Shown here piece after piece: positions 19,737 through 33,233 of a stretch of 38,462 bases of DNA. Origin of the DNA: a bacterium (GTDB lineage: Bacteria; Babelota; Babeliae; Babelales; JAUWHS01); contig JBDRFY010000075.1 of NCBI GenBank assembly GCA_043818275.1, forward strand, positions 1 through 38,462, in the 5' to 3' direction. Positions within the stretch are counted from its first letter, which is position 1; each line of letters starts with the position of its first letter. The notes under the pieces were generated by a model. It was not told where the DNA came from. It was given only the letters and a program-made list of their open reading frames with translations, and ran no database searches. The position numbers and the translations under genes were made by a program.

Positions 19737-19872
19737 AATAAATTATACTACGAATTTAAAACAACCTTGCTGATTTACCAAAAAATGCTTAGTTTTTTAT
19801 CAATTAAAGCCTATTTATCTCAAATTAATAATATTTAAAGTTTCTTCACCATCTTAACTCATATTTAAACTT

Positions 19873-19910
19873 CAAATTATTGACAAGCGACAAATGACAA
19901 ATGATAAAGT
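19873..19910 (+). promoter_or_regulatory. Shared promoter motif, copy 1
   Basis: CAAATTA-TTGACA-19 nt-TAAAGT with TG extended -10; near-identical at 20445 and related at 22450. Confidence 0.6.
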
Positions 19911-19947
19911 TACATTGTTTAATAAAAATAATTTAAAAGGAGTTTTT

Positions 19948-20316
19948 ATGAAAAAAAATTTTTTAATCATCATATTTTCTTGTACTATGTTAACCGGCTT
20001 ATTTTCAATGTCTCAACCAGATATCTCTCGTGAAACCTTGGGTTGGGACATAGAAGGAACTGTAAAAGGTTTGGTTGAAAAATTCATTGTACCATACATA
20101 AACGAAATAAAAGGAACAATCTCTAAATTTACAGCCACCGTGGACACACAAATAAAAAATAAATTCGAGGAACATAAAGAAAAAATAGACAAAATTTTAG
20201 AAAATAAAACAAAAGAATACACAGAAAAAATTGATAAAATTTTTACAAAAAAAACAAACGATTTCCTAAATCAAATTGAACAAAAAGTAAACGAAATGCT
20301 ACAAAAGCTTGAATAA
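19948..20316 (+). CDS. Small secreted amphipathic-helical protein (paralog 1)
   Basis: AAGGAG SD before ATG 19948; signal peptide; similar to 20519..20854 (P.IN.IK...NKF....ID..L..KT..Y...ID.IFTKK..D..NQ.EQK.....KLE). Confidence 0.8.
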   Translation: MKKNFLIIIFSCTMLTGLFSMSQPDISRETLGWDIEGTVKGLVEKFIVPYINEIKGTISKFTATVDTQIKNKFEEHKEKIDKILENKTKEYTEKIDKIFTKKTNDFLNQIEQKVNEMLQKLE

Positions 20317-20358: not shown

Positions 20359-20444
20359 TGATTATCAAAATACAGACTAAAATATTTTTTCAGCAAATAA
20401 CATTTCTATAAATAAGCATTAAATTATTCATTAACATTAAACTT

Positions 20445-20482
20445 CAAATTATTGACAAGTGATCAACAACAAATGATAAAGT
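20445..20482 (+). promoter_or_regulatory. Shared promoter motif, copy 2
   Basis: CAAATTA-TTGACA-19 nt-TAAAGT; the upstream region is duplicated with 19866-19950. Confidence 0.6.
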
Positions 20483-20518
20483 TATTTTTGTTTAAAAAAT
20501 TATTTAAAAGGAGAATTC

Positions 20519-20854
20519 ATGAAAAAATTATTATTATTTTTTTTATTTTCGTTAACCATCTCAACCGGATTATTTTGTTACCCATTTGAAGATGAAATAA
20601 AAAGCACAATTATCTCAATCGTTGACCCAAGAATAAACGATATTAAAATTGTATTTAATAAAGAGTTAAATAGCATAAAAACTCAATTAGATAATAAATT
20701 TAAAATCTATATTGATCAAATAGACGCAATGCTGCAAGAAAAAACAACTAAATACATAAACCAGTTAGATACAATTTTCACAAAAAAATCAAAAGATCTT
20801 ATCAATCAATTAGAACAAAAAATAGATGCGGCATTGAAAAAGCTTGAAGAATAA
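20519..20854 (+). CDS. Small secreted amphipathic-helical protein (paralog 2)
   Basis: AAGGAG SD; signal peptide ending TGLFC; tandem duplicate of 19948..20316. Confidence 0.8.
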   Translation: MKKLLLFFLFSLTISTGLFCYPFEDEIKSTIISIVDPRINDIKIVFNKELNSIKTQLDNKFKIYIDQIDAMLQEKTTKYINQLDTIFTKKSKDLINQLEQKIDAALKKLEE

Positions 20855-22170: not shown

Positions 22171-22449
22171 TGCTCCCCCTCCCCAAAAAACCCCTAAACT
22201 TTTATTACTTTAAAAGCGCTTTTCTCACTTTCTATATCATCTTAAACCTATCAACCCTCTTTTCTATTAGTCAATCAAATCAAAATTTACCTTAAAAAAC
22301 CGCTGTCTTATTACAAAGCATAACTTTAAGCTTTTTATTTAAACCCTAAAAAACACCCTTTTAAAGAAAAAGAATTAGTCATTACCCTAAAAAAAGCTTT
22401 TTTTTAACATTTTAAAGCAAGCAATTGATTATCGACCTGATTCAAATGG

Positions 22450-22487
22450 CAAATTATTGACAGATAGCCATCCTTAAGTGTTAAGAT
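22450..22487 (+). promoter_or_regulatory. Shared promoter motif, copy 3
   Basis: CAAATTA-TTGACA-19 nt-TAAGAT with TG extended -10. Confidence 0.55.
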
Positions 22488-22527
22488 TAAATTGTATGCA
22501 AAAAACAATTATTTAGGGGGGAAGATT

Positions 22528-22957
22528 ATGAAAAAATATTTTTTTAATGTTTTGATCACATTAACAATGTTATCAAACCTAACTGCAATGAATGTTTCGG
22601 TACAGCAAAAAAAACCTGGAAAATCAAAAAACCCAAATTACAGCGCAAAGACAAGAAAAAATAGATCAATATACAAAACAATTAAATGATGCTACCCAAC
22701 AAAAAATTAATGATTACGCAAAGCAAATGGAAGAATTCAAAAATCAAAAAATCGAAATATACAAAAAAAGAATAGATGAAGAAAAAAAGAAAAAGTTGGA
22801 TCAGTTTATAGAAAAATTAGATGTACAAATGGCAAAAATAACAAATGATATAGACAGGCAAATCATTCAGCTACAACAAACAGCTCAAACACAAACTCAA
22901 CAAAATGCAGTTCTTACTCCAACTCCAGCATCAACAATGACCATGCAACCTAAATAA
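22528..22957 (+). pseudogene. Secreted helical protein (likely paralog 3), split by a +1 frameshift at an A8 tract
   Basis: G-rich SD and signal peptide from ATG 22528; helical body in the +1 frame (22592..22957); removing one A at 22607-22614 gives a 142-aa protein. Confidence 0.6.
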
Positions 22958-24337: not shown

Positions 24338-24376
24338 AAGTTAAGAACCTCTGACAATGTCAGAGGTTCTTAACTT
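24338..24376. terminator. Perfect 19-bp inverted repeat, probable terminator
   Basis: AAGTTAAGAACCTCTGACA-A-TGTCAGAGGTTCTTAACTT immediately after the stop codon. Confidence 0.6.
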
Positions 24377-24410
24377 GCCATTATTTTGCATCCCGGTATA
24401 TTGCACAATT

Positions 24411-25451
24411 ATGAAAATACAAAAAAATATTTCTTTAAAAAATAAAAACTGGTTTCAAACTGGTGGAAATGCAAAATTCTATTGCGAACCAGAAAATGAA
24501 ACTCTTTTTCAAGAAGCTTTAAATTTTTCCAAAGAAAATAATTTAGAAACTTTTGTTCTTGGTTCTGGTGCAAATATTTTAATTAGTGATGCCGGCTTTG
24601 ATGGATTAGTTATAAAACCAACTTTGAATAAAATCGAAATCAATCAGGATTTAGTAATTGCTCAGGCCGGTGTAACAATTGAAGAACTAATAAATAATTG
24701 TCTGGATAATAATTTGGTTGGACTTGAAGAATTTAGTGGAATTCCAGGAACTGTTGGTGGATCTGTTTTTATAAATATTCATTATTTTAATTATTTTTTA
24801 AGCGATTTTTTGGTTAGCGCAAAAGTTATAGAAAAAGAAACCGGACAAATTAAAACAGTTAATAAAAATTGGTTTGAATTTGGTTACGACAAATCAAAAC
24901 TTTTTGAAAAAAAACTTTTTTTAATTGACGCAATATTTCAATTAAAAAAAGTTGATAACATACAAACAGCACATGCAAAGGGTAAAAGTGATGAAAGAAT
25001 TTTGCAACGAAATAACCGGTATCCAAATTCAAATACATGCGGAAGTTTTTTTAGAAATTTTCACGCAGATGAAATAGTTAAAACAAACAATAAGCTTCCA
25101 TTCATCGCATATTATTTAGATAAACTTGGAATAAAGGGAGAACTTTTTGTTGGTAAAGCCAAAGTTTCGCACCAACATGCAAACATGATTGTAACAGAAG
25201 AAGGGGCTACAAGTTCAGACGTAATTAAACTTGCTCAAAAAATGCAACAACTAGTGTTTGATAATTTTGGAATTCTTCCACAGCCAGAATGTCAATTCAT
25301 TGGATTTGATGAATATCAATCGTTAACTAAATTCTCGATAAACAATAAACTTAGAATTTTACCCCCACCCGCTCGTCCTGCCTGCCCGTCGAAGCCTTGG
25401 CGAAGACTGGAACGAAGTCGAAGGATCACGAGCGGCAAACTAATGAAATAA
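24411..25451 (+). CDS. murB: UDP-N-acetylenolpyruvoylglucosamine reductase MurB, with a repeat-derived C-terminal extension
   Basis: TGGNA; LGSGANILISD.GFDG; GLEEFSGIPGTVGG; FGYDKS; CGSFFRN; VSHQHAN; PEC; ATG 24411 preferred because the upstream ATG lies in the hairpin. Confidence 0.93.
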   Translation: MKIQKNISLKNKNWFQTGGNAKFYCEPENETLFQEALNFSKENNLETFVLGSGANILISDAGFDGLVIKPTLNKIEINQDLVIAQAGVTIEELINNCLDNNLVGLEEFSGIPGTVGGSVFINIHYFNYFLSDFLVSAKVIEKETGQIKTVNKNWFEFGYDKSKLFEKKLFLIDAIFQLKKVDNIQTAHAKGKSDERILQRNNRYPNSNTCGSFFRNFHADEIVKTNNKLPFIAYYLDKLGIKGELFVGKAKVSHQHANMIVTEEGATSSDVIKLAQKMQQLVFDNFGILPQPECQFIGFDEYQSLTKFSINNKLRILPPPARPACPSKPWRRLERSRRITSGKLMK

Positions 25452-25903
25452 ATTTATTGTTTATTTAAAGAAATATTCTACGAAAAATTACAATTCAATA
25501 AATAGTATTCATAATTTTACCGCTCGTAATCCTTCCTTCGATGCCACTTCGATAAACTCAGTGTTACTCAGGATGATCGGGACTAAATTTTATTCCGCTC
25601 ATACTGAGCGAGTACTGAGCATAATCGAATGTACGAGTCGAAGTAAGGACGAGCGGGTGGGTTCAAAATTCTAAGTTTTTAGAATGTAAATTTATTCGCT
25701 CATCCTGAGTGGAGTATCGCGAAATCGAAGGAAGGGTTTCGAACGGTTATAAAAAAAAATCAATTGTTGAATTGTAATTTTATAGTCACATGCAAATTTA
25801 CAAAGTCAATAATTTTTATTGCCTTAATTTACCACTCATGACCCTTCGACAAGCTCCAGTCTTCGCCAAGGCTTCGACGGGCAGGCAGGGCGAGCGATTG
25901 GAG
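25349..25903. repeat. Gene-less, nested cluster of family C palindromes with family B inserts (REPIN/MITE-like)
   Basis: Left arm 25349-25435 matches 30722-30778; right arm 25519-25676 matches 31091-31148; extra copies at 25697-25736 and 25831-25903; identical 30-nt inserts at 25381-25410 and 25856-25885 in opposite orientation. Confidence 0.88.
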
Positions 25904-25970
25904 GTGATTTAGCTTAACAAACAATTATCGAATTCGCGTTAAATAATTATTTTATAACTTCGGACAACCT

Positions 25971-27101
25971 TTAAATTTCATCCTTCAAAATCTTCTCGCG
26001 ATATTCTTTCATCAAATTCACCATAAAGGCAACGTTGTGAATGCTTGCTAATTGCAAACCGGTAATTTCATGCGCTTTAAATAAATGATGCAAATAAGCG
26101 AGTGTAAAATTTTTGCATGTATAACAATTGCAATTTTTTTCAATCGGTTCAAATTTATTTTTGTTCCCACTTTGTAAAATTCGTAATCCACCATTTTTTG
26201 TAAAAAGTAAACCATGTCTTGCGCAACGTGTCGGATGAGAACTGTCAAAGGTATCAATTCCAGATGTTACACAATGTTGAACTGAATGAAGATCTCCAAT
26301 TCCCAATAAATGATTAGGTTTATCTTCGGGTAAAAGTTTTGGCACAAAATCCAAAAGTTCAAATAGTTCTTCTCTGTTTTTTCCGACACTTCCACCAATT
26401 GCAAAACCATCAAAAGGTAAACTTGAAAGATATTCACAACTTTTTTTTCTTAATTCTTTATCAATTCCACCGTGGACCACTGCATACAAAGCCTGATCTT
26501 TTTTATTTTTCATGTGAGCGTCCAAAGATCTTTTTTCCCAACGATGAGTTCTGTCCAATGATTTTTTTAAATTTTCCGGATCAATGTGATATGGAGGCAA
26601 CTCATCAAAAGCAACAATAATATCCGCGCCAATTTTTTTCTGCGCCTCAATAGAACTTTCTGGTGTAAGCAAAATTTTTGATCCATCTTTATATGATCTG
26701 AAACAAACACCCTCTTCAGTAATTTTTACAACAGAATTGTTTCCTTTTTTTGTTCCCCTGCTTTTCAGTTCATCACAAACTCCACCATAAGCAAGACTAA
26801 AAACCTGAAAGCCTCCAGAATCTGTAATAATTGGTTTTTCTCTACCGATAAATTTATGAATACCCTCAGCCTTTTCAATTAAATCTGCACCTGGCTGAAC
26901 TAATAAATGATAGGTGTTCGCAAACATTAATTGCAAACCTAAATCTTGAACCAATTTATTATCTAACGCTTTTAATGTCCCATTTGTTCCAACCGCAACA
27001 AAATTTGGCGTTTCAATTATTCCATGTGGTGTATGAATTCTTCCTACCCGCGCTCGTGATTTTTTAGATTTATGTAAAACTTCAAATTTAAATTTGTTCA
27101 T
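25971..27101 (-). CDS. tgt: tRNA-guanine transglycosylase (Chlamydia-like, probably queuine-inserting)
   Basis: ARVG.IHTPHG.IETP.F..VGT; NTYHL; TDSGGFQVFSL; HLLGIG; DTFDS; CNCYTC...H Zn site. Confidence 0.96.
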   Translation of the reverse strand: MNKFKFEVLHKSKKSRARVGRIHTPHGIIETPNFVAVGTNGTLKALDNKLVQDLGLQLMFANTYHLLVQPGADLIEKAEGIHKFIGREKPIITDSGGFQVFSLAYGGVCDELKSRGTKKGNNSVVKITEEGVCFRSYKDGSKILLTPESSIEAQKKIGADIIVAFDELPPYHIDPENLKKSLDRTHRWEKRSLDAHMKNKKDQALYAVVHGGIDKELRKKSCEYLSSLPFDGFAIGGSVGKNREELFELLDFVPKLLPEDKPNHLLGIGDLHSVQHCVTSGIDTFDSSHPTRCARHGLLFTKNGGLRILQSGNKNKFEPIEKNCNCYTCKNFTLAYLHHLFKAHEITGLQLASIHNVAFMVNLMKEYREKILKDEI

Positions 27102-27153
27102 AATTCAACCATTCTATTAATTTAATCTTTGCCTCGTTAGAGGCTAAAGTTAT

Positions 27154-27301
27154 TAGCCTCGGGTTTTAACCCGTGGTATTGATAAAAAAACATTCCACCC
27201 CATTTTATGGTGGTGGTAGAAATTAAAAATTTCTTTCGTACCATCAAATGGCACGATATTATGTGATTAAATTTTGAACCACGGGTTAAAACCCGAGGCT
27301 A
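27154..27301. repeat. Inverted pair of TAG-tagged REP-like palindromes (family D)
   Basis: TAGCCTCGGGTTTTAACCCGTGGT (27154-27177) and its exact reverse complement (27278-27301), with a 100-nt spacer containing small hairpins. Confidence 0.85.
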
Positions 27302-27314
27302 TTATCTACAACCC

Positions 27315-27992
27315 TTAACAGGGTTTTCTAAGCTTATTAATTAACTTCTTAGACAAAATAACAACAGGTGAAGAAAGAAAAATAATACTAACTTTAACAA
27401 TCAAACTTAAAAACATAACATCAAATAAACTTGCGACAATTCCATAAAGGCCTAAAAAACTAAACAAGGCAGTATCAATTATTTGACTTAAAATTAAAGC
27501 ACTAACATTTCTTGCCCAAAGATATTTATCATTAAAAAAACTTTTCAAAAAACCATAAACAAAAACATCTAATCTCTGAACAACAAAAAATGTAAAAACT
27601 GAAGCAAATATAATTCTTGGCATAAATTGTAAAATCTGGGCGTAAGAATTATGCACAAAATCTAAAGAACTCGGTTGATACAAAACATGAATCTGAGAGG
27701 CAACCAGATAAAAAAGTAAAATTAATAAATTTAAATATACAGTTTTTTTTGCTATTTCTTTTCCGTAATATTCCTGTAATAAATTTGTTCCCAAAACAGC
27801 CCCTATTATAAAGACATCTGTGCAGGTAACTGTAAGGCCAAATAATGAGATTTGTTTAATTACAAAAAGATTTGCCAATACTGACTGTAAACAAATAAAA
27901 GTGATTAAAGCTTCTTTTGATACAAACAGAAAAAATAGAGTAAAAAATCCAATAACGGCAATCTGAAAAAAAAACAATAATTCATTAAACAT
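27315..27992 (-). CDS. yhhQ: Queuosine precursor transporter (YhhQ/COG1738)
   Basis: LANLFVIKQI.LFG; LLQEYYGK..AK; PRIIFAS; R...S..LSQIIDT.LF.FLG; multi-TM; upstream of tgt; ATG 27992 preferred over TTG 28049. Confidence 0.92.
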   Translation of the reverse strand: MFNELLFFFQIAVIGFFTLFFLFVSKEALITFICLQSVLANLFVIKQISLFGLTVTCTDVFIIGAVLGTNLLQEYYGKEIAKKTVYLNLLILLFYLVASQIHVLYQPSSLDFVHNSYAQILQFMPRIIFASVFTFFVVQRLDVFVYGFLKSFFNDKYLWARNVSALILSQIIDTALFSFLGLYGIVASLFDVMFLSLIVKVSIIFLSSPVVILSKKLINKLRKPC

Positions 27993-28212
27993 GTTTAAAA
28001 TAACCTTGATAAATCCCCCAAATACAACTAAATAAACATTATAAATCAAAGAGTTTTATTGTAAAACCCCCGCTAAACTTCAATTACTTACAAATAGAAA
28101 CTTTTCTTTTCAAAGATACCCTTTTGCATGGTATCCAAAAATAATTAATATTCAGATTCAAATGGTTAGATCAGGTTTTTAAATGCATTAATTAAAAAAC
28201 GTGGAGGATTAT

Positions 28213-29088
28213 ATGAATATTAATAAAAGTAATTTTATTAAAATATTTATGGTTATTATTTTTTCGCTTTCATTATTTCAAATCACAAAAACTCAGGATA
28301 TTGTTGAAAAAACAGAAACAACAACCGCACAAAACAATGCTGATGGTGTCTACACAAAAACAAAAGAAAAAACTCAAACAACCAAACCGTCTATGGTTAA
28401 ACCAAAAAATTCAATTTCCATTTTGACAAATAATCCCAAGGTCATTTCATCGATGCGTGATGTAACGGAAAATATGTCAGAAAGTAACAAACTCTTTTTT
28501 TACAATCACACACAACTTATACCTGTTAGAATTCAGATAAAAAACAATTCTGACACGGCTTTATTAATAAATAATGATGCCCTAAAATATAACTTGCAGG
28601 TAAATTCAAAAAAGGCTTCTTACGCCCTGGGTTTACAAATTTTACGACATACAGCTTCACAATACATAAATTATTTCACTTATATCTCAGCTCTTGGTGG
28701 AACAGGTTTTATTGGTTATAAATTTAACGATAAGTTATTAAACACGATAATAGATATTTCTAAACAATCTGTTGATTTTTCCGCTAAACTGGTAAATCCA
28801 TATATGTTGATACCAGCAGGCTTAGCTATATTTACATTAAATAAATTGGATAGCAAATATGCTTTAACTTCAACCGCGATAAATAAAGTATTTGGATTTT
28901 ATAATCACTTAAGAGCGGAAGATTTTCAACCAATTTTTGATATAAGAAATGAATTTAATCAACAACAAGAAACAACAACTATTCAACCATCAGGCCAAGC
29001 TGAAATATTAGTATTTGTAACACAAAAAAATAAAGAAGATCTCTGGAATAATAACATTCAACCAGCATTAAATTTTAATATTCAATAA
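28213..29088 (+). CDS. Secreted/membrane hypothetical protein
   Basis: GGAGG SD before ATG 28213; hydrophobic N-terminus; T/K-rich linker; two further hydrophobic segments. Confidence 0.7.
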   Translation: MNINKSNFIKIFMVIIFSLSLFQITKTQDIVEKTETTTAQNNADGVYTKTKEKTQTTKPSMVKPKNSISILTNNPKVISSMRDVTENMSESNKLFFYNHTQLIPVRIQIKNNSDTALLINNDALKYNLQVNSKKASYALGLQILRHTASQYINYFTYISALGGTGFIGYKFNDKLLNTIIDISKQSVDFSAKLVNPYMLIPAGLAIFTLNKLDSKYALTSTAINKVFGFYNHLRAEDFQPIFDIRNEFNQQQETTTIQPSGQAEILVFVTQKNKEDLWNNNIQPALNFNIQ

Positions 29089-29120
29089 AAATCAATAAAA
29101 TCTCATAACCTCTATTTTTT

Positions 29121-29148
29121 AGGCCGGTGTTTTTCACCGGCCTTTTTT
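29121..29148 (+). terminator. Intrinsic terminator
   Basis: AGGCCGGTG-TTTTT-CACCGGCCT followed by a T-run. Confidence 0.8.
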
Positions 29149-29230
29149 ATGCATATTTGCCATAACACAATTTAACCAGTAAAATTTACGAATTATTAAC
29201 TAAAATAAAAAGATTGAAATATTAAATAAA

Positions 29231-29343
29231 AGACCCTGAATCAAGTTTCCGTCTACGTTAAAACTTCGACGGACAGGCTAGGATGACCGTCATCGTGCTT
29301 GTCGACCGAAGCTTAGCGAAGGTTGAAACTTGATTCAGGGTCT
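29231..29343. repeat. Head-to-head family A pair, each arm carrying a family B insert
   Basis: 19-bp perfect outer IR AGACCCTGAATCAAGTTTC/GAAACTTGATTCAGGGTCT; inserts at 29248-29277 (-) and 29298-29326 (+). Confidence 0.85.
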
Positions 29344-29382
29344 CTGCTCTTAAAAATTATTAATTCTTTATAAAGGACAAAA

Positions 29383-30690
29383 ATGACTGGTGAAGTAACA
29401 CTGGAAAAAATAGTATCACTTTGTAAAAGAAGAGGTTTTGTATTCCCTTCAGCTGAAATTTATTCCGGATTAAATGGTGTTTATGATTTTGGTCCATTAG
29501 GAGTTGAGCTTAAACAAAATATTAAAAAACTATGGCTTGAAAATATGCAAAAATGGCCGGAAGATGTTGTTCAGCTTGATGGCGCAATTTTAGGCCCAAA
29601 ACCTGTTTGGAAAGCATCTGGGCATATCGATAATTTTATTGATCCGATGGTTGACTGTCTAAATTGCAAAAAAAGATTTCGCGCGGATGAAATTGATTTG
29701 AATAAACCATGTCCATCATGTGGAGTAAAAAAATGGACTGAAGTTCGTAAATTTAATCTGATGTTTAAAACCGAAGTTGGCGCTGTAACAGGCCAAGAAA
29801 ATTTTGGTTATCTCAGACCAGAAACAGCTCAATCCATTTTTATCAACTTTAAAAATGTTCTTACCAGTACACGCGTAAAAATTCCATTCGGAATTGCGCA
29901 AATCGGTAAAGCTTACAGAAATGAAATTACACCAAAACAATTTTTATTCAGAATGCGTGAATTTGAACAAATGGAACTGGAATTTTTCTGCAAACCAGAA
30001 CAAACGGATAAATACTTTGACAACTGGGTTGAAAGAAGAATGCAATTTTACAAAAATTTTGGTCTTGATGCTAAAAAAGTCAGAACGAGACCACATGCAA
30101 AAGATGAACTTGCCCACTACTCCAAATGCTGTATCGATGTTGAGTATGAATTTCCTTTTGGATGGAAAGAACTTGAGGGAATCGCAAACAGAACAAATTA
30201 TGATTTAACACAACACATAGAACATTCAGGCAAAGATTTGTCTGTTTTTGATGAAGAAACAAAAGAATCTTATGTACCACACGTTGTAGAATGTTCCGTT
30301 GGTGTTGAACGATTATTTTTAACAATCCTTTTTGATGCTTACAAAGAAGATGAAATAGATGGCGAGCAAAGAATTGTTTTAAAACTTGATCCAAAACTTG
30401 CGCCTGTTAAAGCGGCAATTCTTCCTCTTGTAAAAAAAATATCTGAACCAGCGCAAAAAATTTATGACTTTTTAAAAAGTAAAAATTATAAAATTCAATT
30501 TGATGAATCCGGTTCAATTGGAAAACGTTATCGACGTCAGGATGAAATCGGAACACCAGTGTGCTTAACTTACGATTTCGATTCTGAAAATGACAAAATG
30601 GTAACGGTAAGAAATCGCGACACATTAAAACAGGAAAGAATTGCAATTGATCAAATTGAAAATTATTTAGATAATTTATTGAAAAAATAA
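29383..30690 (+). CDS. glyQS: Glycine--tRNA ligase (alpha2 / GlyQS type)
   Basis: LCKRRGFVFP..EIY.G; YDFGPLG; ASGH; LRPETAQ; GIAQIGKAYRNEITP; REFEQMELEFF; SIGKRYRRQDEIGTP. Confidence 0.97.
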   Translation: MTGEVTLEKIVSLCKRRGFVFPSAEIYSGLNGVYDFGPLGVELKQNIKKLWLENMQKWPEDVVQLDGAILGPKPVWKASGHIDNFIDPMVDCLNCKKRFRADEIDLNKPCPSCGVKKWTEVRKFNLMFKTEVGAVTGQENFGYLRPETAQSIFINFKNVLTSTRVKIPFGIAQIGKAYRNEITPKQFLFRMREFEQMELEFFCKPEQTDKYFDNWVERRMQFYKNFGLDAKKVRTRPHAKDELAHYSKCCIDVEYEFPFGWKELEGIANRTNYDLTQHIEHSGKDLSVFDEETKESYVPHVVECSVGVERLFLTILFDAYKEDEIDGEQRIVLKLDPKLAPVKAAILPLVKKISEPAQKIYDFLKSKNYKIQFDESGSIGKRYRRQDEIGTPVCLTYDFDSENDKMVTVRNRDTLKQERIAIDQIENYLDNLLKK

Positions 30691-30722
30691 ACGACTTCCT
30701 TGAATATTTTACATTTTTAACA

Positions 30723-30779
30723 CTTAGAATTGTAACCCACCCGCTCGTCCTAAGCGTAGTCGAAGGATCACGAGCGGTA
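30723..30779 (+). repeat. Left structured inverted repeat (family C) of the GIY-YIG cassette
   Basis: CTTAGAATTGTAACCCACCCGCTCGTCCTAAGCGTAGTCGAAGGATCACGAGCGGTA; internal stem CCGCTCG/CGAGCGG. Confidence 0.9.
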
Positions 30780-30798
30780 CGCTAAATAAAATAATATT

Positions 30799-31074
30799 AT
30801 GACTTTTTACGTTTACATGCTTAGATGTGCTGATGGCTCATTTTATATTGGTCATACAGATAATCTTGAAAATAGAAGATATGAACATCAAATGAAAAAA
30901 TATAACGGTTATACAAGTACTCGCTTGCCAATTCAGCTAGTATTTCATGAAGCTTTTCCAACCAGAGATGAAGCTTTTGCCGCAGAAAGGAAATTAAAGG
31001 GTTGGATGCGAAAAAAGAAAATTATTTTAATTAAATATGGTTGGGAAGGCTTTGTTAAAAACAAATGTAAATAA
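30799..31074 (+). CDS. GIY-YIG nuclease family protein (UPF0213/YhbQ-like)
   Basis: FYVYMLRCADGSFYIGHTDNLENR..EH; YT..R.P..LV; EAFAAERKLKGW.RKKK. Confidence 0.93.
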   Translation: MTFYVYMLRCADGSFYIGHTDNLENRRYEHQMKKYNGYTSTRLPIQLVFHEAFPTRDEAFAAERKLKGWMRKKKIILIKYGWEGFVKNKCK

Positions 31075-31090
31075 TTTTAGCTTTTTAGTT

Positions 31091-31148
31091 TACCGCTCGA
31101 TATCCTTCGACTACGCTCAGGACGAGCGGGTGGGGATAAAATTCTAAG
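31091..31148 (-). repeat. Right structured inverted repeat (family C) of the GIY-YIG cassette
   Basis: Reverse complement CTTAGAATTTTATCCCCACCCGCTCGTCCTGAGCGTAGTCGAAGGATATCGAGCGGTA, nearly identical to the left arm. Confidence 0.9.
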
Positions 31149-31168
31149 AAATATATTAAATTATATTG

Positions 31169-31233
31169 CGCTCATCCTGAGTAAAGCGTAGCGAAATCGA
31201 AGGAAGGACGAGCGGGTGGATTTAAAATTCTTA
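31169..31233. repeat. Composite extra family C copy
   Basis: CGCTCATCCTGAGT...GCGAAATCGAAGGA (as at 25697) fused to AGGACGAGCGGGTGG..AAAATTCT (as at 25646 and 31119). Confidence 0.75.
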
Positions 31234-31288
31234 AAATTTAAACGAATGATCATAACAAATTAATATTAAAATTATAAAAAAAAGAAAT

Positions 31289-31867
31289 ATGAAATTTATA
31301 AGAAAATTTTATGACTGGTTGGGAGAAAAAGTAAAATCACCAAACGCGTTAATCTGGCTTTCGGTTCTTTTTTTTATTGAAGCAATTTTTTTCGTTCCTG
31401 TTGATCCATTATTAATTTTATTTTGCCTAAATAATTATAAAAAATCTTTAAACTACGCACTCATTGCAACTGTTTCTTCTGTTGCCGGAGGTGTAACCGG
31501 TTATTTTATTGGCGCTTTCATGTGGGAAAGTTTAGGCGTAAATTTAATAACCTGGATAATAAGTGAGCAAGCTTTTAATAATGCGATTATCAAATATAAA
31601 CTATACCAAAACTGGGCTGTATTTATTGCGGGATTTACTCCGTTGCCATATAAAGCAATAACTTTATCTGCCGGTTTTTGCAAATTAAGTTTACCGGCCT
31701 TTATTTTATTTTCTTTTCTTTCCAGGGGAGCCAGATTCTTTTTATTGGCAGGAATAATTAAAATCGGTGGAGAGAAAATCCACTTTTTTATTGACCGCCA
31801 CTTTAACCAATTAGTAGTCTTGTTTACGTTGTTACTTGTAATAAGTGTCTGGATGTTAAAATTTTAA
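31289..31867 (+). CDS. DedA/YqaA (VTT domain) family membrane protein
   Basis: FIEAIFFVPVDPLLI; SVAGGVTGYFIG; AGFTPLPYK..TLSAG; SRGARFF. Confidence 0.9.
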   Translation: MKFIRKFYDWLGEKVKSPNALIWLSVLFFIEAIFFVPVDPLLILFCLNNYKKSLNYALIATVSSVAGGVTGYFIGAFMWESLGVNLITWIISEQAFNNAIIKYKLYQNWAVFIAGFTPLPYKAITLSAGFCKLSLPAFILFSFLSRGARFFLLAGIIKIGGEKIHFFIDRHFNQLVVLFTLLLVISVWMLKF

Positions 31868-31883
31868 AAAACAAGGCCACATT

Positions 31884-33233
31884 ATGAATCCTAAAATTGC
31901 TGACGTTTCTCCAGGAAGAATTTTAATTGCTTCATTTTTATTTGTTATAAGTTTGGGAACATTTCTTTTAAGTTTGCCCGCAAGCCGGGTGGTTAACATT
32001 CCATTTATAGATATTCTATTTACAGCTGCATCAGCAACATGCGTTACCGGACTTCAGGTTGTTCCAATTTATTATTTTAGTTTTTTTGGCAAATGCGTAA
32101 TTTTAAGTCTTATTCAAATTGGCGGACTTGGATTAATGACATTATCGTTCTTTTTAGTTTCATTAATTTTAAGAATGCGTTTTTCAACCCAGGTTATTGC
32201 CGGACAATTATTGGAATTTGAATCCGCGGATAAAGTTAAAACATTTTTAAGTTCTATTATCAGTATTACCGTAATTACAGAATTAATAGGCGCAATATTA
32301 CTTTATCCATCATTTAAAGAATTATTCGCAACAAAAAAAGCTGTTTTTTATTCTGTCTTTCATTCTATTTCAGCCTTTTGTAATTCTGGCGTCAGTTTAT
32401 TTGAAAACAACATGGCCGATTTTGCAAAAAATCCATTTCCATTATCTGTTCTTTCTCTGCTCGTCTTTTTAGGCGGCATTGGTTTTATTGTCTGGTATGA
32501 AATGATAAATCTGGTTAAAAAATTTATCCGGTCTATCAAAAGAGACAAAACACCAATCTATTCTGTTTCTCTTCATACCAAAATTGCTTTAAATACTTCA
32601 CTTATATTAATTGGTTCAGGCACTATCATTTTCTGGTTTTTGGAAAAAGGTAACGCTTTGCGCAGCTTGGGTTTTATAAATAAATTTGTAAACTCATTTT
32701 TTATTGCATCAACAGTGAGATGTGCGGGATTTCAGACTGTTAGCGTTGATGAACTTGCATTGCCAACTTTGTTAATTTTAATGATATTAATGTTTATTGG
32801 CGCAAGCCCAAGTTCCACAGGAAGTGGAATAAAAACAACAACATTTGCTCTTTTTATTGCATCCATCGCCTCAATAGTAAGAAACAGAACATCTATAGAA
32901 ATAGGAGGAAGAACAATTCCAAATGATCAGGTTTACAAAGCAACTGCAATAGTTTCATTAGCGCTAGGTTGGCTTTTATTTACAATATTTTTACTTTTAA
33001 TAACTGAAAAATCATTTAGCTTTATTCAGGTTTTTTTTGAAGCAACCGCAGCTTTTTCAACTGGAGGACTCTCAACTGGAATAACACCGTATCTTTCCAA
33101 AATTGGAAAACTAATATTAATGATTTCCATGGTTGTTGGAAGGATGGGTTCACTAACATTGGTTCTTGCTTTGATCAAGAAAAAAGAAAAACAATTATAT
33201 CGTTATCCGGAAGAAAGAATAATTATTGGATAA
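31884..33233 (+). CDS. trkH: Trk/Ktr K+ uptake membrane subunit (KtrB/TrkH)
   Basis: FTAASATCVTGL; LIQIGGLG; FHSISAFCNSG; RCAGF; MFIGASPSSTGSGIKTTTF; GLSTGIT; YPEERIIIG. Confidence 0.93.
   Translation: MNPKIADVSPGRILIASFLFVISLGTFLLSLPASRVVNIPFIDILFTAASATCVTGLQVVPIYYFSFFGKCVILSLIQIGGLGLMTLSFFLVSLILRMRFSTQVIAGQLLEFESADKVKTFLSSIISITVITELIGAILLYPSFKELFATKKAVFYSVFHSISAFCNSGVSLFENNMADFAKNPFPLSVLSLLVFLGGIGFIVWYEMINLVKKFIRSIKRDKTPIYSVSLHTKIALNTSLILIGSGTIIFWFLEKGNALRSLGFINKFVNSFFIASTVRCAGFQTVSVDELALPTLLILMILMFIGASPSSTGSGIKTTTFALFIASIASIVRNRTSIEIGGRTIPNDQVYKATAIVSLALGWLLFTIFLLLITEKSFSFIQVFFEATAAFSTGGLSTGITPYLSKIGKLILMISMVVGRMGSLTLVLALIKKKEKQLYRYPEERIIIG

Follow-up and report, generated by a model that had tools for sequence, protein, structure and literature searches.

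A GIY-YIG nuclease gene between inverted hairpin repeats in a Babelota genome: a candidate mobile cassette with gene-less copies

What spreads tagged palindromic repeats that surround a small nuclease gene and no RAYT transposase? The question is raised by a contig of 38,462 nt (the window, i.e., the whole stretch of DNA analysed), part of a 1.33-Mb genome with 30.8 % GC and an assembly completeness of 94 %. A 91-aa GIY-YIG gene is located there between two inverted hairpin arms, as an earlier note on this DNA had described. The features are:

30799-31074, plus strand: GIY-YIG nuclease gene, 91 aa, single domain, UPF0213-like fold (Pfam GIY-YIG, PF01541 only, E 2.4e-17)
30708-30798, plus strand: left arm including outer and inner extensions (inverted-repeat comparison, folding)
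30741-30767, plus strand: minimal hairpin unit of the left arm (tag, 4-bp stem, loop), tag outward
31075-31148, minus strand: right arm, inverted (inverted-repeat comparison)
31103-31129, minus strand: minimal hairpin unit of the right arm, tag outward
31169-31233, strand undefined: composite third arm, a forward unit nested inside the stem of a reverse arm
29383-30690, plus strand: upstream host gene, glycyl-tRNA synthetase (class II aaRS domains), context only; the name glyQS follows the earlier note
31289-31867, plus strand: downstream host gene, DedA/VTT family, context only
25347-25676, strand undefined: gene-less head-to-head dimer between murB and tgt; spacer AT-rich and palindromic, both arms with nested inserts
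25697-25905, strand undefined: second gene-less dimer with a 111-nt spacer, adjoining the first

The locus and its repeat family

The arms are inverted as claimed, but their description as near-perfect was too generous: 30736-30786 and 31084-31134 are 90 % complementary over 51 nt, and 85 % over 79 nt with the outer and inner extensions. Each arm folds on itself with about -9.5 to -9.9 kcal/mol as DNA, and the third arm was present as described; its nesting recurs at other copies in the genome. In the hairpin unit, the tag CCGYTCR precedes a 4-bp stem whose two halves enclose GA, a loop of variable length (4 to more than 30 nt) and TCGA; the left arm carries an A where most family copies have a G. 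Contig pieces from three public DNA runs, one of which may be the source sample, bridge the junctions glyQS/left arm, gene/right arm and third arm/dedA with zero mismatches, each piece covering a part of the locus and none the whole. Joints skipping 30777-31089 were left out, as they likely derive from gene-less copies elsewhere. The ends given for the window locus are approximate, the nearest relative with DNA for comparison sharing about 63 % protein identity.

A single gene-less pair with the same two ends had been reported for the murB-tgt region. The pair exists at 25347-25676, its arms being variants with nested inserts and not the same ends, and the cluster at 25.3-25.9 kb comprises two gene-less dimers. 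The reported flank homology was reproduced: the reverse complement of 30708-30731 is identical (by eye) to 25667-25690 at 21 of 24 bases. The murB frame (24357-25451) reads into the first repeat arm, thus its C-terminus differs from those of relatives. Genome-wide mapping revealed 102 arms, forming 69 clusters on 39 contigs, and 85 matches to the core hairpin pattern versus 0-2 in five shuffles. Beyond the tag, the copies of the window's genome have another 20-45 nt in common, so that the ends are not sharp everywhere. Nine head-to-head gene-less dimers have spacers of 102-112 nt, which are mutually homologous and palindromic. The match of the gene-less spacer to the full element in a profile search was weak (E 0.009); in a post-hoc test, the spacer halves resembled the first codons of the nuclease more than 1496 of 1500 control sites did, a likeness that is no more than suggestive.

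Among seven GIY-YIG matches in the genome, two belong to the group of the window gene and are flanked by arms, four small ones of another group are unflanked, and the seventh lies in a 567-aa frame. A paralog on contig C18, 62 % identical to the window nuclease, carries its own long-loop arm pair. A second group of GIY-YIG genes of about 80 aa was observed at C50:67836, C18:26387, C21:10479 and C6:11653, three with a tRNA-like gene just upstream (by eye); the own hairpin of this group resembles loop inserts in some copies of the window family. Matches to transposases comprised six Y1, three IS4 and one IS110 genes. None of these ten had the arms within 900 nt, in a search over an assembly of 94 % completeness in which several flanks are cut by the end of a contig. 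An assignment of the repeats to Y1/RAYT genes was rejected; three of the six Y1 genes are bounded at either end by terminal repeats of another, unrelated kind. A different inverted-repeat family occurs at 27136-27319, and its arms flank Y1 transposase genes on contigs C59, C60, C76 and C36 in a TIRYT-like layout.

Pairing of gene and hairpin across phyla

The flanks of 107 loci were surveyed; 102 had full flanks and five were dropped. An inverted-repeat score of at least 40 was obtained for 13 of 24 loci of the order (4 Ssn-type) and for 53 of 78 cross-phylum loci versus 1 of 190 shifted windows, an enrichment for which the earlier note had proposed to test. Matches in direct orientation were also present (7/24 order loci, 25/78 cross-phylum loci), because copies cluster. 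The core pattern flanked 85 of 98 clade loci, on both sides in 62, and occurred in 6 of 183 distal windows; these counts are circular, as the pattern was derived from the surveyed loci. In 50 of the 62 loci flanked on both sides the nearest arms stand head-to-head with the tags outward. A metagenome set served as independent test: with the pattern relaxed at one position, 28 of 32 in-clade loci (at least 48 % identity) carried it versus 1 of 25 out-of-clade loci below that identity, for the 57 of 80 loci with enough flank and with near-duplicate contigs included. All four stem positions pair in 118 of 138 short-loop arms taken without a pairing filter, the shuffled mean being 38 and the maximum 54; the hairpin stems covary.

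For 44 loci, similarity was higher between the two arms of one locus (0.66) than between arms of different loci (0.23); this likeness of neighbours could stem from homogenisation within genomes. The proposal that repeats co-occur and co-vary with the protein held for the co-occurrence, the correlation between protein and arm similarity being weak (Mantel rho 0.21, 3 of 999). By their sequences, each nuclease gene appears to be paired with its own, cognate hairpin variant. At least 20 repeat copies were present in 42 of 46 Sphingobium genomes with the gene versus 5 of 15 without a detected gene, and at least five copies in 9 of 16 genomes of the window's order with the gene versus 11 of 44 without, all among related genomes that are non-independent samples. 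Two Sphingobium genomes have the gene, yet zero pattern matches.

On the protein level, Y6, Y16, G18, R26, H30 and E63 are invariant or nearly so in 38 homologs. The predicted structure (pLDDT 86) matched only GIY-YIG folds, UPF0213 and Slx1 among them; the closest solved structures are the UPF0213 proteins PDB 1zg2 and 1ywl with a similar catalytic spacing. The window nuclease shares 39.5 % identity with YazA of B. subtilis, 38 % with an SRM-flanked Ssn stand-in and 30 % with YhbQ of E. coli. NCBIfam had no family above cut-off for four proteins. A quick tree of 76 rows, which lost E. coli YhbQ, L022, L037 and L104, placed the SRM-flanked proteins, a tRNA-adjacent group and YazA on separate branches (support 97-98), while the hairpin-flanked group was broad and poorly resolved with YazA nested within. 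The Ssn clade was represented in it by the SRM-flanked stand-ins, including L161 (94 aa, Y6/Y17/E64 as in SsnA); they branch apart with an SH-aLRT of 98, and the loose criterion of E<1e-10 of Chenal 2025 might still catch some members of the window's group. The two tyrosines are spaced by 10 here versus 11 in SsnA, a difference that is not diagnostic alone because one row of the Ssn branch also has 10.

Insertion sites and traces of movement

Relatives were compared at both loci, for which the earlier note had suggested a search for empty sites. None of 29 relatives has a GIY-YIG gene after glyQS, and dedA directly adjoins glyQS in 18 of them; the spacer measures 4 nt in a genome of the same genus versus 598 nt here. 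The genes murB and tgt overlap in three of five relatives, a fourth is without visible repeat, and in the fifth tgt is non-adjacent. As judged from these comparisons, the window cassette was inserted between two housekeeping genes. Homologs were detected in 20 of 61 genomes of the order (E<=1e-10), with 1-5 copies each and a few of Ssn-type; 25 loci fall into 24 neighbourhoods, so that a fixed locus, which the earlier note had named as contrary evidence, is not evident.

These data bear on the idea of a housekeeping repair nuclease of the YazA/YhbQ type that happened to collect repeats. The UPF0213 structures as nearest neighbours and the YazA rows nested in the window-gene group of the poorly resolved tree speak for this idea. 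YazA/YhbQ-type genes, unlike the window gene, sit in host operons without hairpins: four YazA-type controls had no hairpin within 400 nt and two of the four share the same yabA-rsmI operon, whereas the window-type gene is missing from its site in all 29 relatives. Flank survey, empty site, metagenome set and variable loci already largely refute this explanation, which we regard as barely credible.

Where similar genes occupy unrelated loci, homology stops at the tags in the pairs L052/L186 and L189/L194, with no target duplication, and extends 20-50 nt past the tag in L185/L187. At another locus (L042; G032 C3), the nuclease frame does not stop at the right arm but traverses it and forms a 460-aa frame together with a downstream host gene.

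A site in Sphingobium (the genus of L068) lies between two genes that we take, with the help of a Pfam SpoU match, to be nrdR and trmJ. There, 21 loci are filled. Fifteen further Sphingobium genomes were chosen by hand, ten without the gene and five with the gene elsewhere; nine have a spacer of 17-32 nt at the site, three a longer spacer without evident arms, and three carry remnants. In L311 and L308 the left arm and the first codons are kept, followed by a jump to the right end, i.e., an internal deletion. Between hosts that share 99.6-100 % identity in TrmJ, the nucleases are only 65-72 % alike, and some new cassettes sit within a leftover old right arm. By sequence comparison, the nrdR-trmJ site thus bears alleles without insert, cassettes that were swapped, and copies with an internal deletion. 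Full-length elements exist beside their deletion derivatives, as the earlier note had it, and the hairpin-nuclease cassette and its gene-less copies are a real mobile pair of full-length and miniature element. Of the top 30 Sphingobium loci, 20 have an in-frame fusion of the nuclease with a SpoU-family methyltransferase (trmJ-like), the right arm being translated between the two; these fusions lie downstream of nrdR (L268-L297, e.g., L269:724-1779, minus strand).

Relation to known systems and candidate mechanism

The layout and the comparison to RAYTs made in the earlier note were already published for Ssn, where the gene between hairpins was likened to IS200/IS605 and REP transposases (Chenal 2025, PMC11893778). 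The two systems share a single-domain GIY-YIG gene of about 90-100 aa between tagged hairpins that are also dispersed (SsnA, CDD cd10448; NTS/SRM hairpins), as well as cognate gene-repeat pairs, the window gene lying within a single-domain range of about 90-150 aa. The window protein differs in belonging to another group, outside the cd10448/SsnA clade according to the quick tree with its stand-ins. Its hairpin has a shorter stem of 4 bp, a conserved inner motif and an expandable loop. The published SRM motif was absent from the 98 clade flanks, the window's genome and the 32 metagenome loci; two of four Ssn-type loci matched. Empty sites, swaps and deletion copies as evidence for movement are present here and were not found in the text of the Ssn paper, where the mobility of nuclease-hairpin cassettes is a hypothesis (PMC11893778).

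A second relation exists to the CGTC super-family of REPs (Di Nocera 2013, PMC3733652), which likewise have an unpaired 5' tag, head-to-head dimers and no associated or dedicated transposase. By description, its families 1-4 have a CGTC or TGTC tag, a stem of 8-9 bp and a loop of 4-5 nt; the window family would be a tag variant with one extra pyrimidine and appears to differ in its 4-bp stem with inner motif. What spreads the CGTC-type repeats was left open; the term GIY-YIG is absent from the main text of that study, which names no partner enzyme (PMC3733652). Beyond these two papers, our literature search yielded none on this GIY-YIG clade or its hairpin.

The window system works like Ssn/SRM in layout and, by analogy, probably resembles it in chemistry. 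By clade and motif it is not an Ssn member, nor is it a RAYT system. With REP/REPIN-RAYT systems (TnpA-REP, HUH/Y1) it has in common a single gene between repeats of its own, a large number of inverted pairs without gene, and the lack of a target duplication. Unlike a RAYT, the partner is a GIY-YIG protein without HUH domain, and none of the six Y1 genes carries the arms. RAYTs are described in abstracts as single-copy and mostly vertically inherited; the window-type gene, in contrast, is patchy, multi-copy (1-5) and at variable loci, with one fixed but swapping site in Sphingobium. It differs from DDE-type MITEs as well by the lack of target-site duplications at the tags; such duplications and sharp terminal repeats belong only to a separate IS4 element that carries some copies.

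GIY-YIG enzymes hydrolyse DNA without a covalent phosphotyrosine link and are not known to join DNA. That the nuclease takes the RAYT role, as the earlier note proposed, is unproven because a RAYT links and joins DNA. RAYTs, as HUH enzymes, form a 5'-phosphotyrosine link and perform strand transfer (PMC8266576). The strong form of the proposal, in which the nuclease itself cuts and rejoins as a full transposase, finds a parallel in the layout, which equals a REPtron, and in homology that stops at the tag with no duplicated target, a feature of HUH elements. The protein is, however, a single 91-aa domain matching only GIY-YIG folds, a family whose chemistry is hydrolytic, and we found no strand transfer reported for SsnA (PMC11893778). 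We consider a full transposase very improbable. The designation as structure-specific nuclease may also be too narrow: SsnA, the characterised relative, depends on sequence in addition to structure, binds its tagged hairpin in single-stranded DNA alone and cuts just upstream (Chenal 2025, PMC11893778).

By analogy with SsnA, the window nuclease would likely bind its own hairpin in single-stranded DNA and cut just outside, i.e., 5' of the tag. The outward tags would place one cut per end, on opposite strands. As the enzyme, going by the general chemistry of its family, would do no strand joining, the host repair would finish the move; through repair or recombination, the cassette would probably be copied into, or exchanged at, sites that are new or that already bear a hairpin. 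Some miniature copies also travel inside an IS4 element. We favour the reading that the nuclease drives the spread of the hairpin cassette via host repair, with a probability of roughly 0.55.

According to a competing view, the hairpin-recognising nuclease works for the host, cutting single-stranded DNA that enters the cell, and the repeats spread otherwise. The sole in-vivo role shown in the text on SsnA is of this kind, a restriction of transforming DNA and not a mobilisation of repeats: integration of hairpin-bearing transforming DNA in Neisseria is lowered (PMC11893778). A ComEC-type competence gene is present in the window's genome, and the fixed trmJ site with its in-frame fusion in Sphingobium hints at domestication. 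A selfish element accounts better for the patchy presence, the variable loci, the several paralogs whose arm variants differ, and the swapping of cassettes. We hold host service alone to be unlikely, although the two readings are not mutually exclusive.

The IS4 element opens another route, in which ordinary transposases (IS4 miniature element, Y1, IS110) would act in trans on cassette and miniatures as passengers, with the nuclease gene as cargo. Six gene-less units lie inside an element of 242-272 nt with 16-nt terminal repeats, and a 9-bp duplication was found at three of six complete pairs of that element. Its copies are:

C6:25388-25629, C27:23170-23412, C30:6185-6429, C30:6534-6805, C50:25431-25673 and C71:3795-4049: IS4-derived miniature element copies in the window's genome
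C130:3719-4976 (L247): entry of the IS4-derived element in the same-genus genome G001

An IS4 transposase of G001, not found in the window's assembly, is the autonomous partner; the Y1, IS4 and IS110 matches listed above would be further candidates for such help, and L116 holds a whole nuclease cassette inside an IS4-derived element. Against a general passenger role, only 16 of 102 arms (about 16 %) have an IS4-type terminal repeat at a distance of up to 80 nt, the loci of the window are outside the IS4 element, and this element occurs in 4 of 101 genomes of the order, whereas the pair of hairpin and gene extends across many phyla. The cognate pairing of gene and arms would be left unexplained. 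We rate transport as mere cargo as quite unlikely, more so than the host-service view. The IS4-derived miniature targets other hairpin repeats at their centre, and its cargo consists of different hairpin dimers. At 25954-25966, beside the murB-tgt cluster, 13 nt agree with the inner portion of the IS4 terminal repeat and are possibly a remnant.

A wider proposal built on nuclease-driven spread is more tentative and has, in our estimate, clearly less than even odds: a class of mobile elements without transposase, in which a hydrolytic 91-residue nuclease would cut beside its own hairpin and host repair would copy the cassette. Sister clades (this one, Ssn and the tRNA-end group) might then be the long-missing engines of tagged palindromic repeats without RAYT. 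With the second nuclease clade, alleles that are empty, filled, swapped or deleted are available from nature, and the question of mobility becomes testable in culturable Sphingobium. The clade would also contribute many candidate nucleases with sequence specificity for single strands; their target hairpins, which the published motif misses, are readable from the flanks.

Minor observations concern the remainder of the window. An Rfam scan of 24500-32000 gave four weak matches, all far under the family cut-offs. A weak fluoride riboswitch match at 28306-28359 (20 bits, cut-off 34) is inside an ORF and probably due to chance. Three related regions (19865-19964, 20437-20535 and 22442-22544) are located upstream of small secreted-looking ORFs and share a promoter-like and a ribosome-binding stretch.
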